From sequence record PQ850627.1: DNA of 43,096 bases. One strand, written 5' to 3'. This document shows, one piece after another, positions 5,112-38,001 of this stretch. This DNA comes from Escherichia phage SonjaBuckley_Bas74. The translations under genes were made by a program, and so were the position numbers. Position 1 is the stretch's first letter, and every line of letters starts with the position of its first letter. The notes under the pieces are model-generated. The model did not search any database and had not been told where the DNA came from. It saw nothing but the letters and a program-made list of their open reading frames with translations.

Positions 5112-5138
5112 TTTTCACCTCCTGTTTAAGTTAACTGA

Positions 5139-5167
5139 ATAGTACCCTATTATATTGGGGTGTGCAA
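5139..5167 (-). promoter_or_regulatory. sigma70-type promoter TTGCAC-N17-TACTAT for moron 4908-5111
   Basis: Minus-strand reading TTGCACACCCCAATATAATAGGGTACTAT; 31-bp core identical to copy at 13662-13692. Confidence 0.55.
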
Positions 5168-13633: not shown

Positions 13634-13663
13634 TTTAAACCCCTTCATTGTTGGTGTAAGCGA

Positions 13664-13692
13664 ATAGTACCCTATTATATTGGGGTGTGCAA
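13664..13692 (-). promoter_or_regulatory. sigma70-type promoter TTGCAC-N17-TACTAT for Imm-phosphoesterase moron operon
   Basis: Identical 31-bp sequence to 5137-5167; located 16 nt upstream of ORF start at 13648. Confidence 0.55.
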
Positions 13693-33434: not shown

Positions 33435-35657
33435 CTATTCCAAATCCTCCTCTGTCACCACCAGCATCTCATTTGGTTCGTATAGTGTCTTCGGCCTTAA
33501 TCTATCCCCTATTCTTTCGGGTATACGATATGTTCTCGGTACTACTTCGCCGTTAGCATCGCAACCAAGCATTAGTTCTCCATCTTTCAACATTTTATCA
33601 AGATGGGTGTTAGTCACAGAGAAGTCACCGGAACGAGCCACTATCTGCTGCTGAGTAAAACCGCGACCTGTGTCATCTGACTGTTGCAGGTCTTCCAGTG
33701 CCGAAAGTATTGACTCCTTCCTTACTTCATCCCTGCCGCGTTTAACTTCTTCCTTTACTTTTTGCTTACCTTCTTTCGTCAACCCTTCTTCCCGCTCTTT
33801 CTCCTCGTCAGTTTTGAACGGCTCGAAACCCCACGGCATCAACACAAGCGCCTTGTGTGGTTCAGGAAGGTCCAGGTTTACGATTGTGCCGTATTCTTCT
33901 GTGCCCCCCAGGAACTCAACCGCACGGTACTCTTTCGGCGGCGGAGCTTCGCGGAACTGCACAGACTCCAGCACCATGCCAACCGTTTTCTGTTGAGGAC
34001 CGTGCTTAAATTTCGAGTGGTATACGTTTATTTGACGGTCGGTTGCACGTTCGATTGTCAGTTCCACGTCAACACCCGCATACAGCGCCCCACTGCCGCG
34101 TGCTTTCTTTCCACCCTTCGGCGTATGGTGGACAACGCCTACTGCGGCTTTAGTTGCATCGCGTACTTCTTTCAGAATGGCGATAACTTTACCCATGCCG
34201 ATTGCTGTTGATGAACTGTTCTCGTCGAACTTATCAATCGTCAGTGCCAGGGTCTGGTTAAGGGTGTCGAACGCAACCATGCCAATTGGCTCGTCGCCAG
34301 CAGTTTCGCGCATTAACTTAATCAGGCTTTTAAGTTTGCCGACTTCGCCCATATCGATGACGTGTACATAATCTTTACCTTCCCCGCCATATTTAGCCGC
34401 TAGTGCATCAATACGGGTGCGTGTAGCTGCGCCACCCTCACCATCAATATAGAAATGGTGGCAACGCTGGGTATCCGCCCCCGCAAACCTGTACCCGGCG
34501 GCGCTGAGGTACATCATCCCCAGCGTATAGAACGATTTGTACGTGCCAGATTCCCCGACGATATCCCAGATACAATCCGACGGCATGTACCCCTCAACGA
34601 CGAAATCAGCCTTTACCGGCTCCGGTAACTCGTCCTCCTCTGAGTCCTCGTCGTCTTCCAGGTCGTCGAGGCTGCAAGTTACTGGGTCCTCGTTCTCTGT
34701 GCGGTGTAGTTCTTCAATCTCTTCTTCCGGTAAATCAGGCAGAGCCGCACGAATGCTGTTAATGCTGATAGGTTGCTTATCTATGTTAAGCTCGTCGGGT
34801 AGGCCACACATACGCAGGGCCAAATGCTGCCTACGGTTAAGCTCGGTGCAAGCGCCGTTGTTTGTATGCTGGCAGACAAAGCGCACTTCTTTACCGTCGA
34901 GCATTATGCTGGTGGAGCCCTTGCCTGTATGCAGATGTTCGTTAGGGCATGGCACTTCGTACCCGCGCCCGGAAGATAAAGCGTCAAGGCCAAGCTCGGC
35001 TTCGCAGAAGTGTGCTATATCCGCGTTAAGCCCATGCTCATCAGCGGCAAGTGTTTTAGCCTCACGCTTACGCAACCCCATCTCTTCGGCTTTCTTGATG
35101 TACCGCTCAGCACGGATAACACGCCCTTCTGTAACCGTTATCTTCGACTCTTTATGCGGCAGGTAGATAAGGCGGTTGCCGTCTTCTGTGCAGTGGTCGC
35201 GCAACGCTTCGTCTATTTCTAACTCTGCACAAATAGCACGTTGCACCATCCACGCGTCGTTAGAGTTAAACGGCGTGCGAGCTGGAACCAGAACGCGGAA
35301 AGCGTAATCTCCATTTTTACATGCGTGCTGATGCGATGCCGTTGTGTGCAGAATATTGAAGAACGGCGCGTTCTTGAATTTGCGTGTCAGGTCGCGGTAC
35401 TGAGTACGGTTGAGATGGTCGAAATCGAACTTAACCACACTGTCTTCCAGGATAGCGTTTTTACGGCGACCACCAACAGGCGCAATAGCTTTCTGTTTAA
35501 TCTTGGCAGCGTCGTACTCTTCCTTAGTCCATGACGGGTCCACGGATAAACGCTTCGATGTATCGCAGACATACTCGACAAACTGCTCCAGCGGCATTTC
35601 ACGCGCTACAGGGTTTTTATCGAATGTGTTACGCAGCGTTGCAAAAACAATATTCAT
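33435..35657 (-). CDS. DNA primase-helicase (primase domain plus RecA-like ATPase)
   Basis: 740 aa; Walker A GESGTYKS; N-terminal region with Cys/His cluster; synteny with PolA, SSB and nuclease genes. Confidence 0.6.
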   Translation of the reverse strand: MNIVFATLRNTFDKNPVAREMPLEQFVEYVCDTSKRLSVDPSWTKEEYDAAKIKQKAIAPVGGRRKNAILEDSVVKFDFDHLNRTQYRDLTRKFKNAPFFNILHTTASHQHACKNGDYAFRVLVPARTPFNSNDAWMVQRAICAELEIDEALRDHCTEDGNRLIYLPHKESKITVTEGRVIRAERYIKKAEEMGLRKREAKTLAADEHGLNADIAHFCEAELGLDALSSGRGYEVPCPNEHLHTGKGSTSIMLDGKEVRFVCQHTNNGACTELNRRQHLALRMCGLPDELNIDKQPISINSIRAALPDLPEEEIEELHRTENEDPVTCSLDDLEDDEDSEEDELPEPVKADFVVEGYMPSDCIWDIVGESGTYKSFYTLGMMYLSAAGYRFAGADTQRCHHFYIDGEGGAATRTRIDALAAKYGGEGKDYVHVIDMGEVGKLKSLIKLMRETAGDEPIGMVAFDTLNQTLALTIDKFDENSSSTAIGMGKVIAILKEVRDATKAAVGVVHHTPKGGKKARGSGALYAGVDVELTIERATDRQINVYHSKFKHGPQQKTVGMVLESVQFREAPPPKEYRAVEFLGGTEEYGTIVNLDLPEPHKALVLMPWGFEPFKTDEEKEREEGLTKEGKQKVKEEVKRGRDEVRKESILSALEDLQQSDDTGRGFTQQQIVARSGDFSVTNTHLDKMLKDGELMLGCDANGEVVPRTYRIPERIGDRLRPKTLYEPNEMLVVTEEDLE

Positions 35658-35782
35658 TTCTTTTTCTCCGCACGTTCTAAGGCTTCCTGCATACGGCGCA
35701 TTGCGCGGTTCATCTTTACCGGCGCGAAGAAATCGGCGCCGTGTTTCTGTCGGCGCAGCTGTGGAACTATTAACTTCGTCAT
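35654..35782 (-). CDS. hypothetical small basic protein (42 aa)
   Basis: ATG with AAGGAT SD; stop overlaps primase start (ATGA). Confidence 0.35.
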   Translation of the reverse strand: MTKLIVPQLRRQKHGADFFAPVKMNRAMRRMQEALERAEKKK

Positions 35783-35851
35783 TGTATAATCCTTGTGCTT
35801 ACTTTGATGATTTGTGCTTTGGCCCCGACGTTCTTGCGTTGGGGTTTCTTT

Positions 35852-36142
35852 TTACCGTTTAGCCAACCCTTCCAGCAAATTTTTATACTCTTCAAAATAT
35901 TCCTCGACCAAATCATCGCCGAAATAGAAGTCGATATACTCGAGATTATCTCTTACGTTAAGCGATGCCGACATGGTGCTTAGTTGGCGTAAGCTAATTA
36001 GCTTCATTTCTGTTTCTACGCAGAAAGGCCGGTAGGTATCAAGATGGCAAGAGATATTGAAGCATAAAGCGAACTCTCCGGCCACGGAGTGAACCATATA
36101 CACTTCGTTTTCTGCTTTATTGTGGAAAATTACGCCTTTCAT
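35852..36142 (-). CDS. hypothetical protein (96 aa)
   Basis: ATG with AAGGAGA SD; ATGA coupling to upstream HTH gene. Confidence 0.5.
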   Translation of the reverse strand: MKGVIFHNKAENEVYMVHSVAGEFALCFNISCHLDTYRPFCVETEMKLISLRQLSTMSASLNVRDNLEYIDFYFGDDLVEEYFEEYKNLLEGLAKR

Positions 36143-36321
36143 TTCACGTTCTCCTTAATCCATGCTTCGACTTTATTACGGTCAAATGTTCCCGGTAAAC
36201 GGCGGCCCATAACCTTAATACAGCAGTCAGGGAATTTGCCGCTGCGCAACCAGTTATTAATGGTCTGACGTGTCACCCCGATACGCTCGGCTACCTCATT
36301 CTGTGTCATGTAATGTTGCAT
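36139..36321 (-). CDS. AlpA/excisionase-type HTH DNA-binding protein
   Basis: Likely ATG start at 36321 with AGGGGAT SD (ORF track GTG at 36435); MTQNEVAERIGVTRQTINNWLRSGKFP matches the HTH_17 pattern; first gene downstream of TTGCTT-N17-TATACT promoter. Confidence 0.55.
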   Translation of the reverse strand: MQHYMTQNEVAERIGVTRQTINNWLRSGKFPDCCIKVMGRRLPGTFDRNKVEAWIKENVK

Positions 36322-36352
36322 TTTTATATCCCCTGTTTGTTTAGTGAAACCG

Positions 36353-36381
36353 AGTATAGGATAGCGGGAATGTAAAAGCAA
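36353..36381 (-). promoter_or_regulatory. promoter TTGCTT-N17-TATACT for AlpA-like HTH operon
   Basis: Minus-strand reading TTGCTTTTACATTCCCGCTATCCTATACT, about 30 nt upstream of ATG at 36321. Confidence 0.45.
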
Positions 36382-36418
36382 CCAATCCCTGCAATATTTA
36401 ATCTTTACAAAAAAGTTA

Positions 36419-36448
36419 TTGAAAGTTCTTGACACATGTTTGTATAAT
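36419..36448 (+). promoter_or_regulatory. promoter TTGAAA-N18-TATAAT driving a non-coding transcript
   Basis: Consensus -10 TATAAT at 36443-36448; divergent from the minus promoter at 36353-36381. Confidence 0.45.
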
Positions 36449-36455
36449 GGTTTTG

Positions 36456-36675
36456 GGACTTGTATATATTACGGAGTTGACGAACCCTCCCCGAGGGATT
36501 CGTCAACCCCTCCCAGACAGCTGAGATGCTTGCCTTGTGGTTTAAGGATAAGTGTATCTAAATCTCATTTAAAGAAGTAACCCGCTGAAATATCTACTGT
36601 TTCTTAATGTGCCGTAGATTCGCAACCGTAAAAATGTAACGATTATTGGGCAGGCTTAGGGCCTGCCCTTTAGTT
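36456..36675 (+). ncRNA. candidate small non-coding RNA (about 220 nt)
   Basis: Promoter upstream, strong 5' hairpin at 36476-36507, intrinsic terminator at 36648-36675, no ORF with SD (only an 11-codon ATG frame). Confidence 0.3.
36648..36675 (+). terminator. intrinsic terminator closing the candidate sRNA
   Basis: GGGCAGGC-TTAGG-GCCTGCCC followed by TTTAGTT. Confidence 0.6.
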
Positions 36676-36740
36676 ACCAAGTAATAAGAATAAAGGCACA
36701 ACAGTTTCGAAAGAATCACAACGGCAACGTAACTATTCTC

Positions 36741-36769
36741 TTGCACACCCCAACATAATAGGATACTAT
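36741..36769 (+). promoter_or_regulatory. sigma70-type promoter TTGCAC-N17-TACTAT for plus-strand small-gene cluster
   Basis: TTGCACACCCCAACATAATAGGATACTAT; 29 of 31 positions identical to the moron promoter repeat. Confidence 0.55.
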
Positions 36770-36803
36770 TCACTTATCGAAACGAGACAGAGGAGTGAAG
36801 GTT

Positions 36804-36989
36804 ATGTTTAAGAAGGGTCAGTTGGTTCGTAATAGATTGAGCGGCGATTTATTTACAGTAATAGAATCAAATCTAATGTGGTTTGGTTTTGTGGAGGTTA
36901 ATAGCGTAGCGGGTTTCGGTAAAGGGTTACTCCGTAAATGTGATTTAGAACTCATCGGCAACAATTTTAAATTCAAAGGGGCGAAGTGA
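36804..36989 (+). CDS. hypothetical protein (61 aa)
   Basis: ATG with AGGAGTGAAGG SD (ORF track GTG at 36795); first gene downstream of TTGCAC-N17-TACTAT promoter. Confidence 0.45.
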   Translation: MFKKGQLVRNRLSGDLFTVIESNLMWFGFVEVNSVAGFGKGLLRKCDLELIGNNFKFKGAK

Positions 36990-37348
36990 TGGATAAGCAA
37001 GTTTTACGAACAGCCGCTGAAGGCGCTATTGAGAAATATGGGGACGAATGGTTTGGGACTGGAAGTCAAATTTGCACCGTTCACAAGTCAAAGATTAAGC
37101 TTATATCTTATGCCAGCCCTAATCTCGTAATTGAATTGCTGGATGAAATAGCAGCCCTAACAGAGGAGAATATTAAACTTAATCAAAAAATTGATAAGTT
37201 ATTAATATGGCCCGGTATAGAGTTTGATTCGTCAGCGTGGGGTTTCTCTAACAATGATGGTGATGCCGCGCTTGAATTAATATGCGACCACACGGCATCG
37301 GATCCTGATGCTCGTGCCGACGACTCTGAGGGAGGTTGCCGTAAATGA
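36986..37348 (+). CDS. hypothetical protein (120 aa)
   Basis: ATGA coupling to upstream gene; uninterrupted frame. Confidence 0.5.
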   Translation: MMDKQVLRTAAEGAIEKYGDEWFGTGSQICTVHKSKIKLISYASPNLVIELLDEIAALTEENIKLNQKIDKLLIWPGIEFDSSAWGFSNNDGDAALELICDHTASDPDARADDSEGGCRK

Positions 37349-37536
37349 GAATTCGAATAACTGATGTTGATTATGCGGACCCGCGCGACGGTGACGATTT
37401 GCCGCTTAGTTACTGGGGTGTTGCTCTTGGTGGTGAGTTTGAAGTGGACGACGTAGCTGACGGTACATTCGTAATTGAATGTGACGCCGGGTATGTAGTT
37501 GTGTACCCCTGTGAATGCGAAGTCCTGGAGGACTAA
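37345..37536 (+). CDS. hypothetical acidic protein (63 aa)
   Basis: ATGA coupling; D/E-rich. Confidence 0.45.
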   Translation: MRIRITDVDYADPRDGDDLPLSYWGVALGGEFEVDDVADGTFVIECDAGYVVVYPCECEVLED

Positions 37537-37539
37537 GTT

Positions 37540-37683
37540 ATGAGAGAAGCATTTGAACGGTGGGCCGTCGTTGAGGGTCTGCCCGTTAACAAGGGTTCGA
37601 AGAAAGAGTACCTGAACGCTAAGACGCGTCTCGCGTGGCGGGCGTGGAAGGCTGGTATGCAAGCTGTGATGAATAAGGGGTGA
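37540..37683 (+). CDS. hypothetical protein (47 aa)
   Basis: ATG with GGAGGA SD; uninterrupted frame to TGA; under ORF-track cutoff. Confidence 0.4.
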   Translation: MREAFERWAVVEGLPVNKGSKKEYLNAKTRLAWRAWKAGMQAVMNKG

Positions 37684-37686
37684 TTT

Positions 37687-37887
37687 ATGAGTCAGTGGAT
37701 TAAGTGTAGTGAGCGGATGCCGGAAGAAGGCGAGATGGTCCTTACTGCGTTTCGTGGTGTTGTTAGGTCGGGCGTGTGTAAGGCTGTAGATGTTATCGGC
37801 GGTAAGTGTTTTGTAAGTGAGATTGACAGATGCCACGGGACACCGGCGACCCACTGGATGCCGTCACCAAGGCCGCCGGAACAATAG
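37687..37887 (+). CDS. hypothetical protein, DUF551-like C-terminus
   Basis: 66 aa ending THWMPSPRPPEQ, resembling the conserved C-terminal motif of the DUF551 phage protein family; followed by strong terminator. Confidence 0.45.
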   Translation: MSQWIKCSERMPEEGEMVLTAFRGVVRSGVCKAVDVIGGKCFVSEIDRCHGTPATHWMPSPRPPEQ

Positions 37888-37910
37888 TTTAAGATTTTAC
37901 TGAGTGACTT

Positions 37911-37948
37911 ACGCTGCTACACAGCAGCGTATCATTTTTCTCATTTTT
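37911..37948 (+). terminator. intrinsic terminator after 37687-37887
   Basis: ACGCTGCT-ACAC-AGCAGCGT followed by ATCATTTTTCTCATTTTT. Confidence 0.65.
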
Positions 37949-38001
37949 GTTCTATTTCACCAAACGCAACAATCGAAGCGACTATTGCAGGAGATGCAAC
38001 A

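Follow-up and report, generated by a model that had tools for sequence, protein, structure and literature searches.

A conserved non-coding unit with exchangeable cassettes at the divergent early junction of Kagunavirus and Jerseyvirus genomes

The sole divergent junction in the genome of Escherichia phage SonjaBuckley_Bas74 is a 480-nt interval without genes, running from an HTH_17 regulator to the first early gene, and it raises the question of what such an interval might produce. The window that we analysed (the whole of sequence record PQ850627.1, 43,096 nt) is a complete Kagunavirus (Guernseyvirinae) genome, with Escherichia phages Bas71, Bas76, DUEC01 and KMB35 as near-identical relatives. 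An earlier note, made without database searches, had placed a candidate regulatory small RNA here, with a promoter of its own, a very stable 5' hairpin and an intrinsic terminator. In GenBank records the early switch region of the Guernseyvirinae, of ~0.5-1 kb, is left blank or filled with spurious ORFs; the fBC-Eco01 record already lists two of the features, a predicted host promoter that is P1 and a predicted terminator, and leaves both uninterpreted. Our search of the literature on the Guernseyvirinae transcriptome, non-coding RNA, promoters and terminators returned genome announcements only, with no transcriptome, Northern or 3'-end data found, and this phage group goes unmentioned in a review of phage-derived sRNAs from 2025 (PMC12197685). 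We conclude that the non-coding unit at this locus is real, is conserved and has not been described before, being in kind either a phage early non-coding RNA or a terminated leader.

Table 1. Positions, in window coordinates, of the genes and sequence features discussed in the text.
Feature	Position	Strand or direction	Remarks
Structural genes	1 to ~23.9 kb	rightward	
Replication genes	36321 to ~24.0 kb	leftward	
HTH_17 regulator, 60 aa	36139-36321	minus	left neighbour of the gene-free interval
PL, early promoter of the HTH/helicase-primase operon	36381-36353	minus	TTGCTT-N17-TATACT; read from sequence
P1, sigma-70 promoter	36419-36448	plus	TTGAAA-N18-TATAAT; 11/12 consensus positions
SL1, predicted 5' stem-loop domain	36455-36514 (core hairpin 36476-36507)	plus	-24 to -29 kcal/mol, z ~-5.5
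SL2, second predicted leader hairpin	36524-36559	plus	minimum-energy fold
Near-invariant, mostly unpaired stretch, left part of cassette W	36597-36647	plus	33 distinct variants, two genera
Left arm (TGCCGT) of the cassette-bounding inverted repeat	36610-36615	plus	pairs with 36721-36726 in isolated-domain folds
Intrinsic-terminator-like hairpin and tail	36648-36675 (hairpin 36648-36668)	plus	GGGCAGGC-UUAGG-GCCUGCCC + UUUAGUU
Invariant A-rich segment 3' of the terminator	36676-36700	plus	invariant in alignments
Hypervariable linker inside W, 10 nt	36701-36710	plus	at least 6 versions and 9-10 nt deletions, 33 variants
Conserved right end GAAAGAATCACAACGGCAACGTAAC, with right arm ACGGCA (36721-36726)	36709-36733	plus	
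P2, early-cluster promoter	36741-36769 (33-nt motif 36741-36773)	plus	TTGCAC-N17-TACTAT; phage-specific repeated motif
Small early genes, ~6 kb	from 36804 (first ATG)	rightward	

The promoter with which the proposed unit opens is well founded, P1 being the best promoter-like site within 35000-38000, and transcription from it is predicted to start at ~36455. Its placement in an early switch region also stands, with PL 40 bp behind P1 and P2 ahead of the first early gene (Table 1). The -10 element of PL, TATACT, is kept in all aligned relatives, and a promoter scan located the equivalent site in phage Jersey. Every relative carries a P1 in the same place, as TTGACA-N17-TAAGTT, TAAGGT or TAAAAT, or as TTGACT-N17-TAAGCT; among the loci retrieved for comparison (~60, out of >400 GenBank Guernseyvirinae genomes), P1 and its leader fall into at least five unrelated sequence types, with P1 near consensus in every lineage. 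At 36412-36431 of the window a 10-nt sequence is repeated in tandem (AAAGTTATTG/AAAGTTCTTG), with the result that two -35-like hexamers, TTGAAA and TTGACA, stand 10 nt from each other upstream of a single TATAAT; the first alone has workable spacing. Jerseyvirus leaders (loci L005-L007 and L052) have a perfect palindrome, GTAACTTCAAGTTAC, exactly at the predicted P1 start (38891-38907 in L052), which to judge by its sequence is likely an operator, and more copies of AGTAACTT are found downstream of it.

The early genes have a promoter of their own, P2, and P1 is therefore not required just for their expression. Separated from the terminator by 65 nt, P2 is part of a 33-nt motif (TTGCACACCCCAAYATAATAGGRTACTATTC) that occurs three times in the genome, at 36741-36773 on the plus strand and at 5135-5167 and 13660-13692 on the minus strand, against 0 copies expected; a looser core of the motif, AACATAATAGnnTACTAT, has 10 matches against 0.28 expected. 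An inverted repeat in the motif, AATAG-N4-CTATT, overlaps the -10 element and may be an operator. A repeated 'phage promoter' motif in the fBC-Eco01 paper corresponds to the P2 motif (PMC9825357). The two minus-strand copies head minus-strand inserts in the structural region. We considered whether the segment beyond the terminator might be an upstream element that P2-type promoters have in general, and rejected the idea, as the two minus-strand copies have nothing in common with it upstream of the -35.

Two observations concern the leftward side of the junction. The helicase-primase gene (33435-35657, minus strand) is a mosaic, in that residues 348-740 of its product are 91-99.7% identical in phages such as NTEC3; the N-terminal half of the NTEC3-type protein is unalignable, and other phages align over the full length at 59% only. 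Between the 96-aa and 42-aa leftward genes lies a further hairpin, GGCCCCGACG/CGTTGGGGTT, followed by TCTTTTT (35821-35846), which was called on the plus strand and which the fBC-Eco01 record gives as a terminator on both strands.

The transcript predicted from P1 begins with a structured leader. The 5' hairpin proposed earlier does fold as claimed, at -24.0 kcal/mol (z = -5.4), a value that 0 of 200 shuffles equalled, with outer arms GUUGACGAA/UUCGUCAAC and inner arms CCCUC/GAGGG; the predicted transcript as a whole (36455-36680, 226 nt) has a fold of -71.4 kcal/mol, with z = -4.5 against shuffles. The emphasis that had been put on P1 and this hairpin is justified in so far as both features are real, but their sequence is lineage-specific, being common to only ~20 records, all of close relatives, in a BLAST search of 50,697 phage records. 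Despite non-identical sequence, the first 60-90 nt of each leader type fold as a long three-tier SL1. The middle helix of SL1 has been swapped outright with its complementarity kept (CGCUUAA/UUAAGCG, UGUUUAACCC/GGGUUAAACA or GCUUAGCG/CGCGUUAAGGC), and the base helix, in the B and C lineages, has G-C or A-U at one pair and A-U, G·U or G-C at another. An equivalent of SL2 is present in the B and C lineages, where the changes are single and all G·U-compatible. Over the whole structure 99% of paired cells keep their pairing, compared with 32-48% when the partners are slid by 1-3 columns; doubly changed pairs are few (4, in the automatic alignment). A long-range helix of the minimum-energy fold, UGUGCC/GGCACA, was discarded, as it is broken with no compensation in loci L078, L080 and L081.

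At its far end the unit has the GC-rich stem-loop and following U-rich tract of an intrinsic terminator. With its flanks the hairpin folds at -21.9 kcal/mol (z = -4.6), and the stem alone, of 8-9 bp with 7 G-C pairs, at -17.1 kcal/mol. In the tail, TTTAGTTA, 5 of 8 positions are T, and its TransTerm-style score is a moderate -3.9; in the RNA the tail reads UUUAGUU, three U's and then an A, and it is identical in 33 of 33 variants. What had been described as a 'clean' terminator is thus present, hairpin and tail alike, but with a short U-tract, and for this reason read-through into the early operon is likely. The stem covaries between relatives, one A-U pair appearing as G·U in locus L024 and as G-C in L088, and a C-G pair as U-A in 6 sequences. 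Successive changes in the hairpins from A-U through G·U to G-C point to selection on the RNA, the G·U intermediates especially. Mimicry of an anticodon loop or of a CRISPR repeat by the hairpin was set aside, the loop being its most variable part.

Beyond the close relatives, the sequence that is shared at this site is a block of ~135 nt (~36597-36733), which we call cassette W and which runs ~65 nt beyond the terminator. In the same BLAST search W was common to 334 phage records, at 88-96% identity over ~36585-36700; its carriers are Escherichia Kagunavirus and Salmonella Jerseyvirus phages, 266 of the 334 being Salmonella Jerseyviruses, and the block is unannotated in all of them. In a whole-genome comparison with phage Jersey the genes are 68-92% identical. 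Substitutions within W are strongly uneven among 33 variants from two genera, the hairpin loop and the linker being saturated and the flanking 30-50-mers invariant. Given this saturation beside invariant flanks, we read W as being under purifying selection and not as the outcome of recent transfer alone. The mostly unpaired stretch at 36597-36647 is, from the modelled folds, a candidate interaction region. On the other side of the hairpin, AGUAAUAAGAAUAAA at 36680-36694 consists of five A-R-N triplets in succession, a post-hoc observation, and both substitutions seen inside it hit an N position. Short repeats are frequent in the region: four GTAAC/GTTAC sites within 170 nt are the genome-wide maximum, and GCAAC(C)GTAA and CACAAC occur twice each. 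Because the ~65 nt beyond the terminator are equally conserved, a simple sRNA ending at the terminator fails to account for the conservation. The earlier proposal of a regulatory small RNA holds for the non-coding unit, for its conserved promoter-terminator architecture and for the kept pairing, but the near-invariant part is the 3' third and extends past the terminator.

W is not the only sequence found at this position. A scan of IMG/VR with the P2 5' UTR revealed Kagunavirus contigs in which the core of the block is replaced by unrelated non-coding sequence, with P1, the leader, the right end GAAAGAATCACAACGGCAACGTAAC and P2 still present. Counted in records, the alleles of the site are W (334), X (32), Y (20) and null (at least 40), so that the locus is kept in >400 related phages as three exchangeable versions and a deleted one. 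Cassette X, found in 32 GenBank records with K1G and K1H among them, has a GGGGUGGGC/GCCCACCC hairpin within an AGAGUAC/GUACUCU outer stem, then UUUUAAG; no canonical terminator was called in it. Cassette Y, with 20 records including Golestan and Raoultella phage RP180, has (CUCA)n, n ~3-6, followed by a GGUGCC-UUCG-GCACC hairpin and a U/C-rich tail, and the terminator called in it is weak. U-tracts are sub-optimal in W, X and Y alike. The CTCA microsatellite of Y varies from ~3 to 6 copies between otherwise near-identical phages (loci L099, L102, L103, L108, L110 and L111), and the run is predicted to pair with a GGAGUGAG stretch of the leader. All three cassettes start with (U/G)UGCCGU(A/G) and are followed by ACGGCAA, and in isolated-domain folds UGCCGU/ACGGCA forms the closing helix of every cassette; this shared helix is suggestive only, since its arms never vary and TGCCGT is over-represented genome-wide. 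Across the whole window TGCCGT/ACGGCA is 2.7-fold over-represented (77 vs 28 ± 5.5) and TTGCCGT 3.5-fold (29 vs 8.2 ± 3.1).

The arrangement around the cassettes is steadier than their content. A sigma-70 promoter is present 223-268 nt upstream of the terminator in 44 of 44 W-bearing loci (the distance from P1 to the terminator being 221 nt in the window and 255-268 nt in relatives), and in X and Y loci it lies 235-299 nt upstream of the conserved right end. The simple promoter-hairpin-terminator layout first suggested is to this extent general, but what fills the site is one of three alternative cassettes or, in the null allele, nothing. Poor conservation, or replacement by a coding gene in relatives, had been named as grounds against the unit; no relative has a gene in place of the region, although the sequence of P1 and its hairpin is confined to the ~20 records mentioned above. 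In phage Jersey the W block is exactly absent; 40 or more Jerseyvirus records, those of SETP3, SETP13 and SB3 among them, have the same junction, which sits between ~17-nt imperfect direct repeats (CTGA..TGCCG.A.GATTC). The right end GAAAGAATCACAACGGCAACGTAAC, which follows W, X and Y in Kagunaviruses, is lost from the null allele along with the cassette. What remains in phages of this type is P1, SL1 and SL2, with P2 mostly intact, which argues for a role of the leader that is independent of termination. A coupling of cassette loss to P2 decay, as in Jersey (TGCGAT), was rejected, as it fails in SETP3 and SB3. Leader types and cassettes assort largely independently, implying recombination at the junction AAGTnnCTGAT. 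In some close relatives an extra small gene ('internal head protein') stands directly downstream of P2 (Bas70, locus L003, 1504-1722), and its insertion there indicates further mosaicism at the site.

The cassettes also differ in their relation to the first early gene. Two segments of Y could pair with the 5' UTR and Shine-Dalgarno (SD) region of this gene by complementarity (z -2.1 to -2.6), and the leader associated with Y bears a mimic of the same 5' UTR; leaders of the ST20 type have a copy of the P2 5' UTR. X has an anti-SD-like stretch, CUUCACUCC, with a 9-nt match opposite GGAGUGA(A/G)G. For W, no complementarity to the downstream translation-initiation region was found (z = +1.0).

Database searches placed the unit in no described family. 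Rfam 15 at the gathering threshold gave no match in the whole window or in the X, Y and Jersey-type W loci, and permissive Rfam scans gave terminator-driven noise only, at <=20 bits. The check by Rfam search and by folding and conservation across relatives, which the earlier note had put forward, thus has a divided outcome: no family match, but pairing of the stem-loop and the terminator that is kept via compensatory or G·U changes. In 5,426 E. coli genomes there was no W-block match of ~20 nt or longer. A bacterial origin of the block was rejected, with no E. coli match and with GTDB 17-mer matches that are nearly all chance, in unrelated taxa. A scaffold of 18,987 bp in a Taishania pollutisoli assembly (Bacteroidota; NZ_JACVEL010000022.1) carries a Jerseyvirus-type P1 unit with W, and is probably phage contamination of the assembly. 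The short inverted repeat (6-7 bp) and the imperfect direct repeats recall a MITE or an IS-derived element, but there is a single site per genome and none in E. coli, and we discarded this origin; a replication origin or pac site is unlikely, as the cassette is missing or replaced in many viable phages.

Searches for partners of W gave chance-level results. The best runs in the phage genome are 13-14 nt including G·U pairs, which is the chance level, and the top one lies on an untranscribed strand; complementarity to the host rrn operon (16S, 23S, 5S and three tRNAs) is at most 9 nt of Watson-Crick pairing, equal to shuffled controls. Of the features of Hfq-dependent sRNAs, the unit has its own promoter (P1, 11 of 12 positions) and a predicted non-coding transcript with no conserved ORF; in place of an uninterrupted poly-U tail of ~6-7 U or more it has UUUAGUU. 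A possible seed is present in the conserved unpaired 36597-36647, for which complementarity is at chance in the phage genome and the rRNA operon and for which the host was screened at ~20 nt or longer.

Comparison with known systems helps to define what the unit resembles. StxS sRNA, like lambda 6S RNA, is the short PR'-tR' transcript of lambdoid and Stx phages (PMC7547250). The likeness lies in a strong constitutive phage promoter with an intrinsic terminator within ~200 nt, upstream of an operon, the distance from P1 to the terminator being 221 nt here, and in these systems such a short non-coding RNA can have its own trans function. In contrast to them, the downstream operon here has its own promoter, P2, 65 nt beyond the terminator, and does not depend on antitermination in the same manner; no Q-like antiterminator or qut site was identified, and the eight adjacent proteins match no antiterminator family in Pfam or PHROGs. 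The present phage is moreover virulent, its unit lies in the early and not the late region, and there is no sequence or Rfam similarity. The c4 RNA of phages P1 and P7 and the CI RNA of P4 are leader-derived immunity RNAs from an early operon of a phage or satellite that has a gene for a large primase-helicase. Segments that complement one another internally, or that complement a downstream RBS, are seen here for X and Y; W, whose z of +1.0 was given above, has no detectable complementarity to the downstream translation-initiation region; nor is there a lysogeny or immunity context, and the Rfam C4 model has no match. The early leader of T7 has the RNase III site R0.3, and leaders of the ompA type have 5' stabilising hairpins. 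As in the T7-type leader, the early region opens with consensus host promoters, and a large conserved stem-loop follows ahead of the first gene, but here a terminator-like hairpin and a second promoter stand between the leader and the genes. The put element of HK022 is an antiterminator RNA; it too consists of stem-loops that are transcribed soon after an early promoter and ahead of a terminator, but there is no sequence similarity, and SL1 sequences vary freely between lineages here. Membership in the lambda 6S/StxS, c4/CI or T7-type class, the nearest parallels in logic, fails on at least one defining feature in each case.

Our own reading, which we put at about an even chance of being right, is that 36419-36735 is a dedicated non-coding transcription unit heading the rightward early region, the P1-driven structured RNA of which has a leaky end at the cassette terminator. 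We infer both the transcription of the unit and its termination. In this model, host sigma-70 RNA polymerase would initiate at P1, at ~36455, and would transcribe the structured leader of SL1 and SL2, followed by ~50 nt of mostly unpaired, near-invariant sequence. A substantial fraction of transcripts would end at the GC-rich hairpin and UUUAGUU (36648-36675), yielding an RNA of ~220 nt that would be hairpin-protected at both ends, and the remaining transcripts would continue through the conserved right end and past P2 to reach the early genes. W, as the last ~135 nt, would be an exchangeable module, in place of which relatives have X, Y or nothing at exactly the same site. We also infer that the invariant unpaired stretch contacts an RNA or protein partner sequence-specifically. 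That the RNA from the P1 unit acts in trans is conceivable, although we lean against it.

Several of the same observations can be accommodated by a leader that acts in cis only, as an attenuator or insulator, a possibility that we regard as rather doubtful. P1 would then be the first of tandem early promoters and the terminated RNA functionless; SL1 and SL2 would protect or process the mRNA 5' end, and the leaky terminator would tune P1 read-through and shield the regulated P2 from occlusion. This is favoured by the null phages SETP3 and SB3, which keep P1, SL1, SL2 and an intact P2 and in which P1 must read into genes, by the sub-optimal U-tracts of every cassette, by the position of P2 immediately after the cassette, and by the UGCCGU/ACGGCA closing helix, which in the isolated-domain folds is possible in read-through RNA only. 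The complementarity of CUUCACUCC in X and of (CUCA)n in Y to the SD region of the first gene, and the mimicry of that 5' UTR by the Y-type leader, have a switch-like character. Conservation past the terminator and the retention of the leader in null-allele phages, neither of which the simplest sRNA model explains, also sustain this alternative. However, a terminator or insulator needs ~35 nt, leaving ~100 more invariant nt of W, in two genera, unexplained; W itself is without anti-SD complementarity; and the closing-helix sequences allow no covariation test as they never vary, and contain the over-represented TGCCGT. The persistence of conservation beyond the terminator could instead reflect a DNA-level element, with the invariant hairpin flanks as protein-binding or recombination sites, such as HTH_17 operators on P2 or cassette-exchange linkers. 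The clustered GTAAC/GTTAC, GCAAC(C)GTAA and CACAAC motifs, the TGCCGT...ACGGCA inverted repeat that bounds all cassettes, the ~17-nt imperfect direct repeats flanking the null allele and the HTH_17 regulator encoded next door are all in keeping with this. We nevertheless consider it unlikely, as the hairpin, with its G·U intermediate and fully compensated pairing, and SL2 of the leader, upstream of the cassette, with its wobble-only changes, together indicate selection on RNA, and the other two P2-type promoters are without similar upstream sequence. Dispensability rules out an essential origin or packaging site, and a single-copy, phage-specific sequence is no proliferating mobile element.

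The interval might alternatively be the relic of a lost early 'moron' gene, whose promoter, decayed 5' UTR and terminator are left with no present function. The type-A leader does include AGACAGCUGAG-AUG, similar to the early-gene RBS AGACAGAGGAG, the ST20-type leaders contain their P2 5' UTR copy, and small promoter-gene units make up the early region in mosaic fashion; but the near-invariance of W across genera beside a saturated internal linker, the compensatory changes in SL1 and the terminator, and the maintenance of P1 near consensus in every lineage make decay a distinctly improbable explanation. It is scarcely credible that the function resides in a small protein, whether from a plus-strand frame of 10-11 codons or from an annotated minus-strand ORF of 33 or 59 aa. 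The earlier note had counted a single ATG frame of 11 codons with no SD; there are in fact two short plus-strand frames, at 36527-36562 (11 codons) and 36607-36639 (10 codons), but the absence of an SD holds for both. Neither is conserved, and the ATG of the second is AAG in BUCT825 and many other relatives. The minus-strand candidates stem from the Bas71 and Bas70 GenBank records, which annotate 'hypothetical proteins' of 33 aa (36405-36506) and of 38-59 aa (36594-36773). Of 27 variants, 14 have the 59-aa frame open, but indels and stops break it in the other 13, the W block having 1-nt indels (A4 vs A5); X and Y are unrelated in sequence, and Y has a 4-nt microsatellite of variable copy number. 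These frames lack conservation, and the annotated ORFs are probably gene-caller artefacts. On both strands every frame is interrupted in some of the relatives, which upholds the description of the unit as non-coding, and a small-protein gene, with a conserved ORF and a ribosome-binding site, was rejected.

A more far-reaching version of the non-coding unit, which we offer as speculation and think fairly unlikely, is that the P1 locus is a cassette-exchangeable RNA gene. It would combine a constant promoter and structured 5' scaffold with one of several 3' effector modules (W, X or Y) or with no module at all, each module being a different trans-acting RNA, and virulent Guernseyvirinae phages would swap the modules by recombination at the conserved boundaries. 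Candidate roles of such modules would be as host-takeover, anti-defence or inter-phage competition RNAs. Swappable modules of this kind would account for the near-invariance of W in phages of E. coli and Salmonella despite its dispensability.

Three candidates for new RNA families emerge from this work, together with a sequence of 135 nt that is near-invariant, and the natural allelic series of W, X, Y and null constitutes a ready-made genetic experiment. The close relatives Bas71 and Bas76 belong to the BASEL collection of E. coli phages, which should make such experiments practical. Kagunavirus and Jerseyvirus phages are among those most often isolated on E. coli and Salmonella, and are used in therapy and in biocontrol cocktails. 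An RNA with trans action would join a very small number of regulatory RNAs that are known from virulent siphophages infecting enterobacteria. Serving as a leader or insulator only, the locus would still define the early transcription architecture of the group, comprising PL, P1, a leaky terminator and P2.
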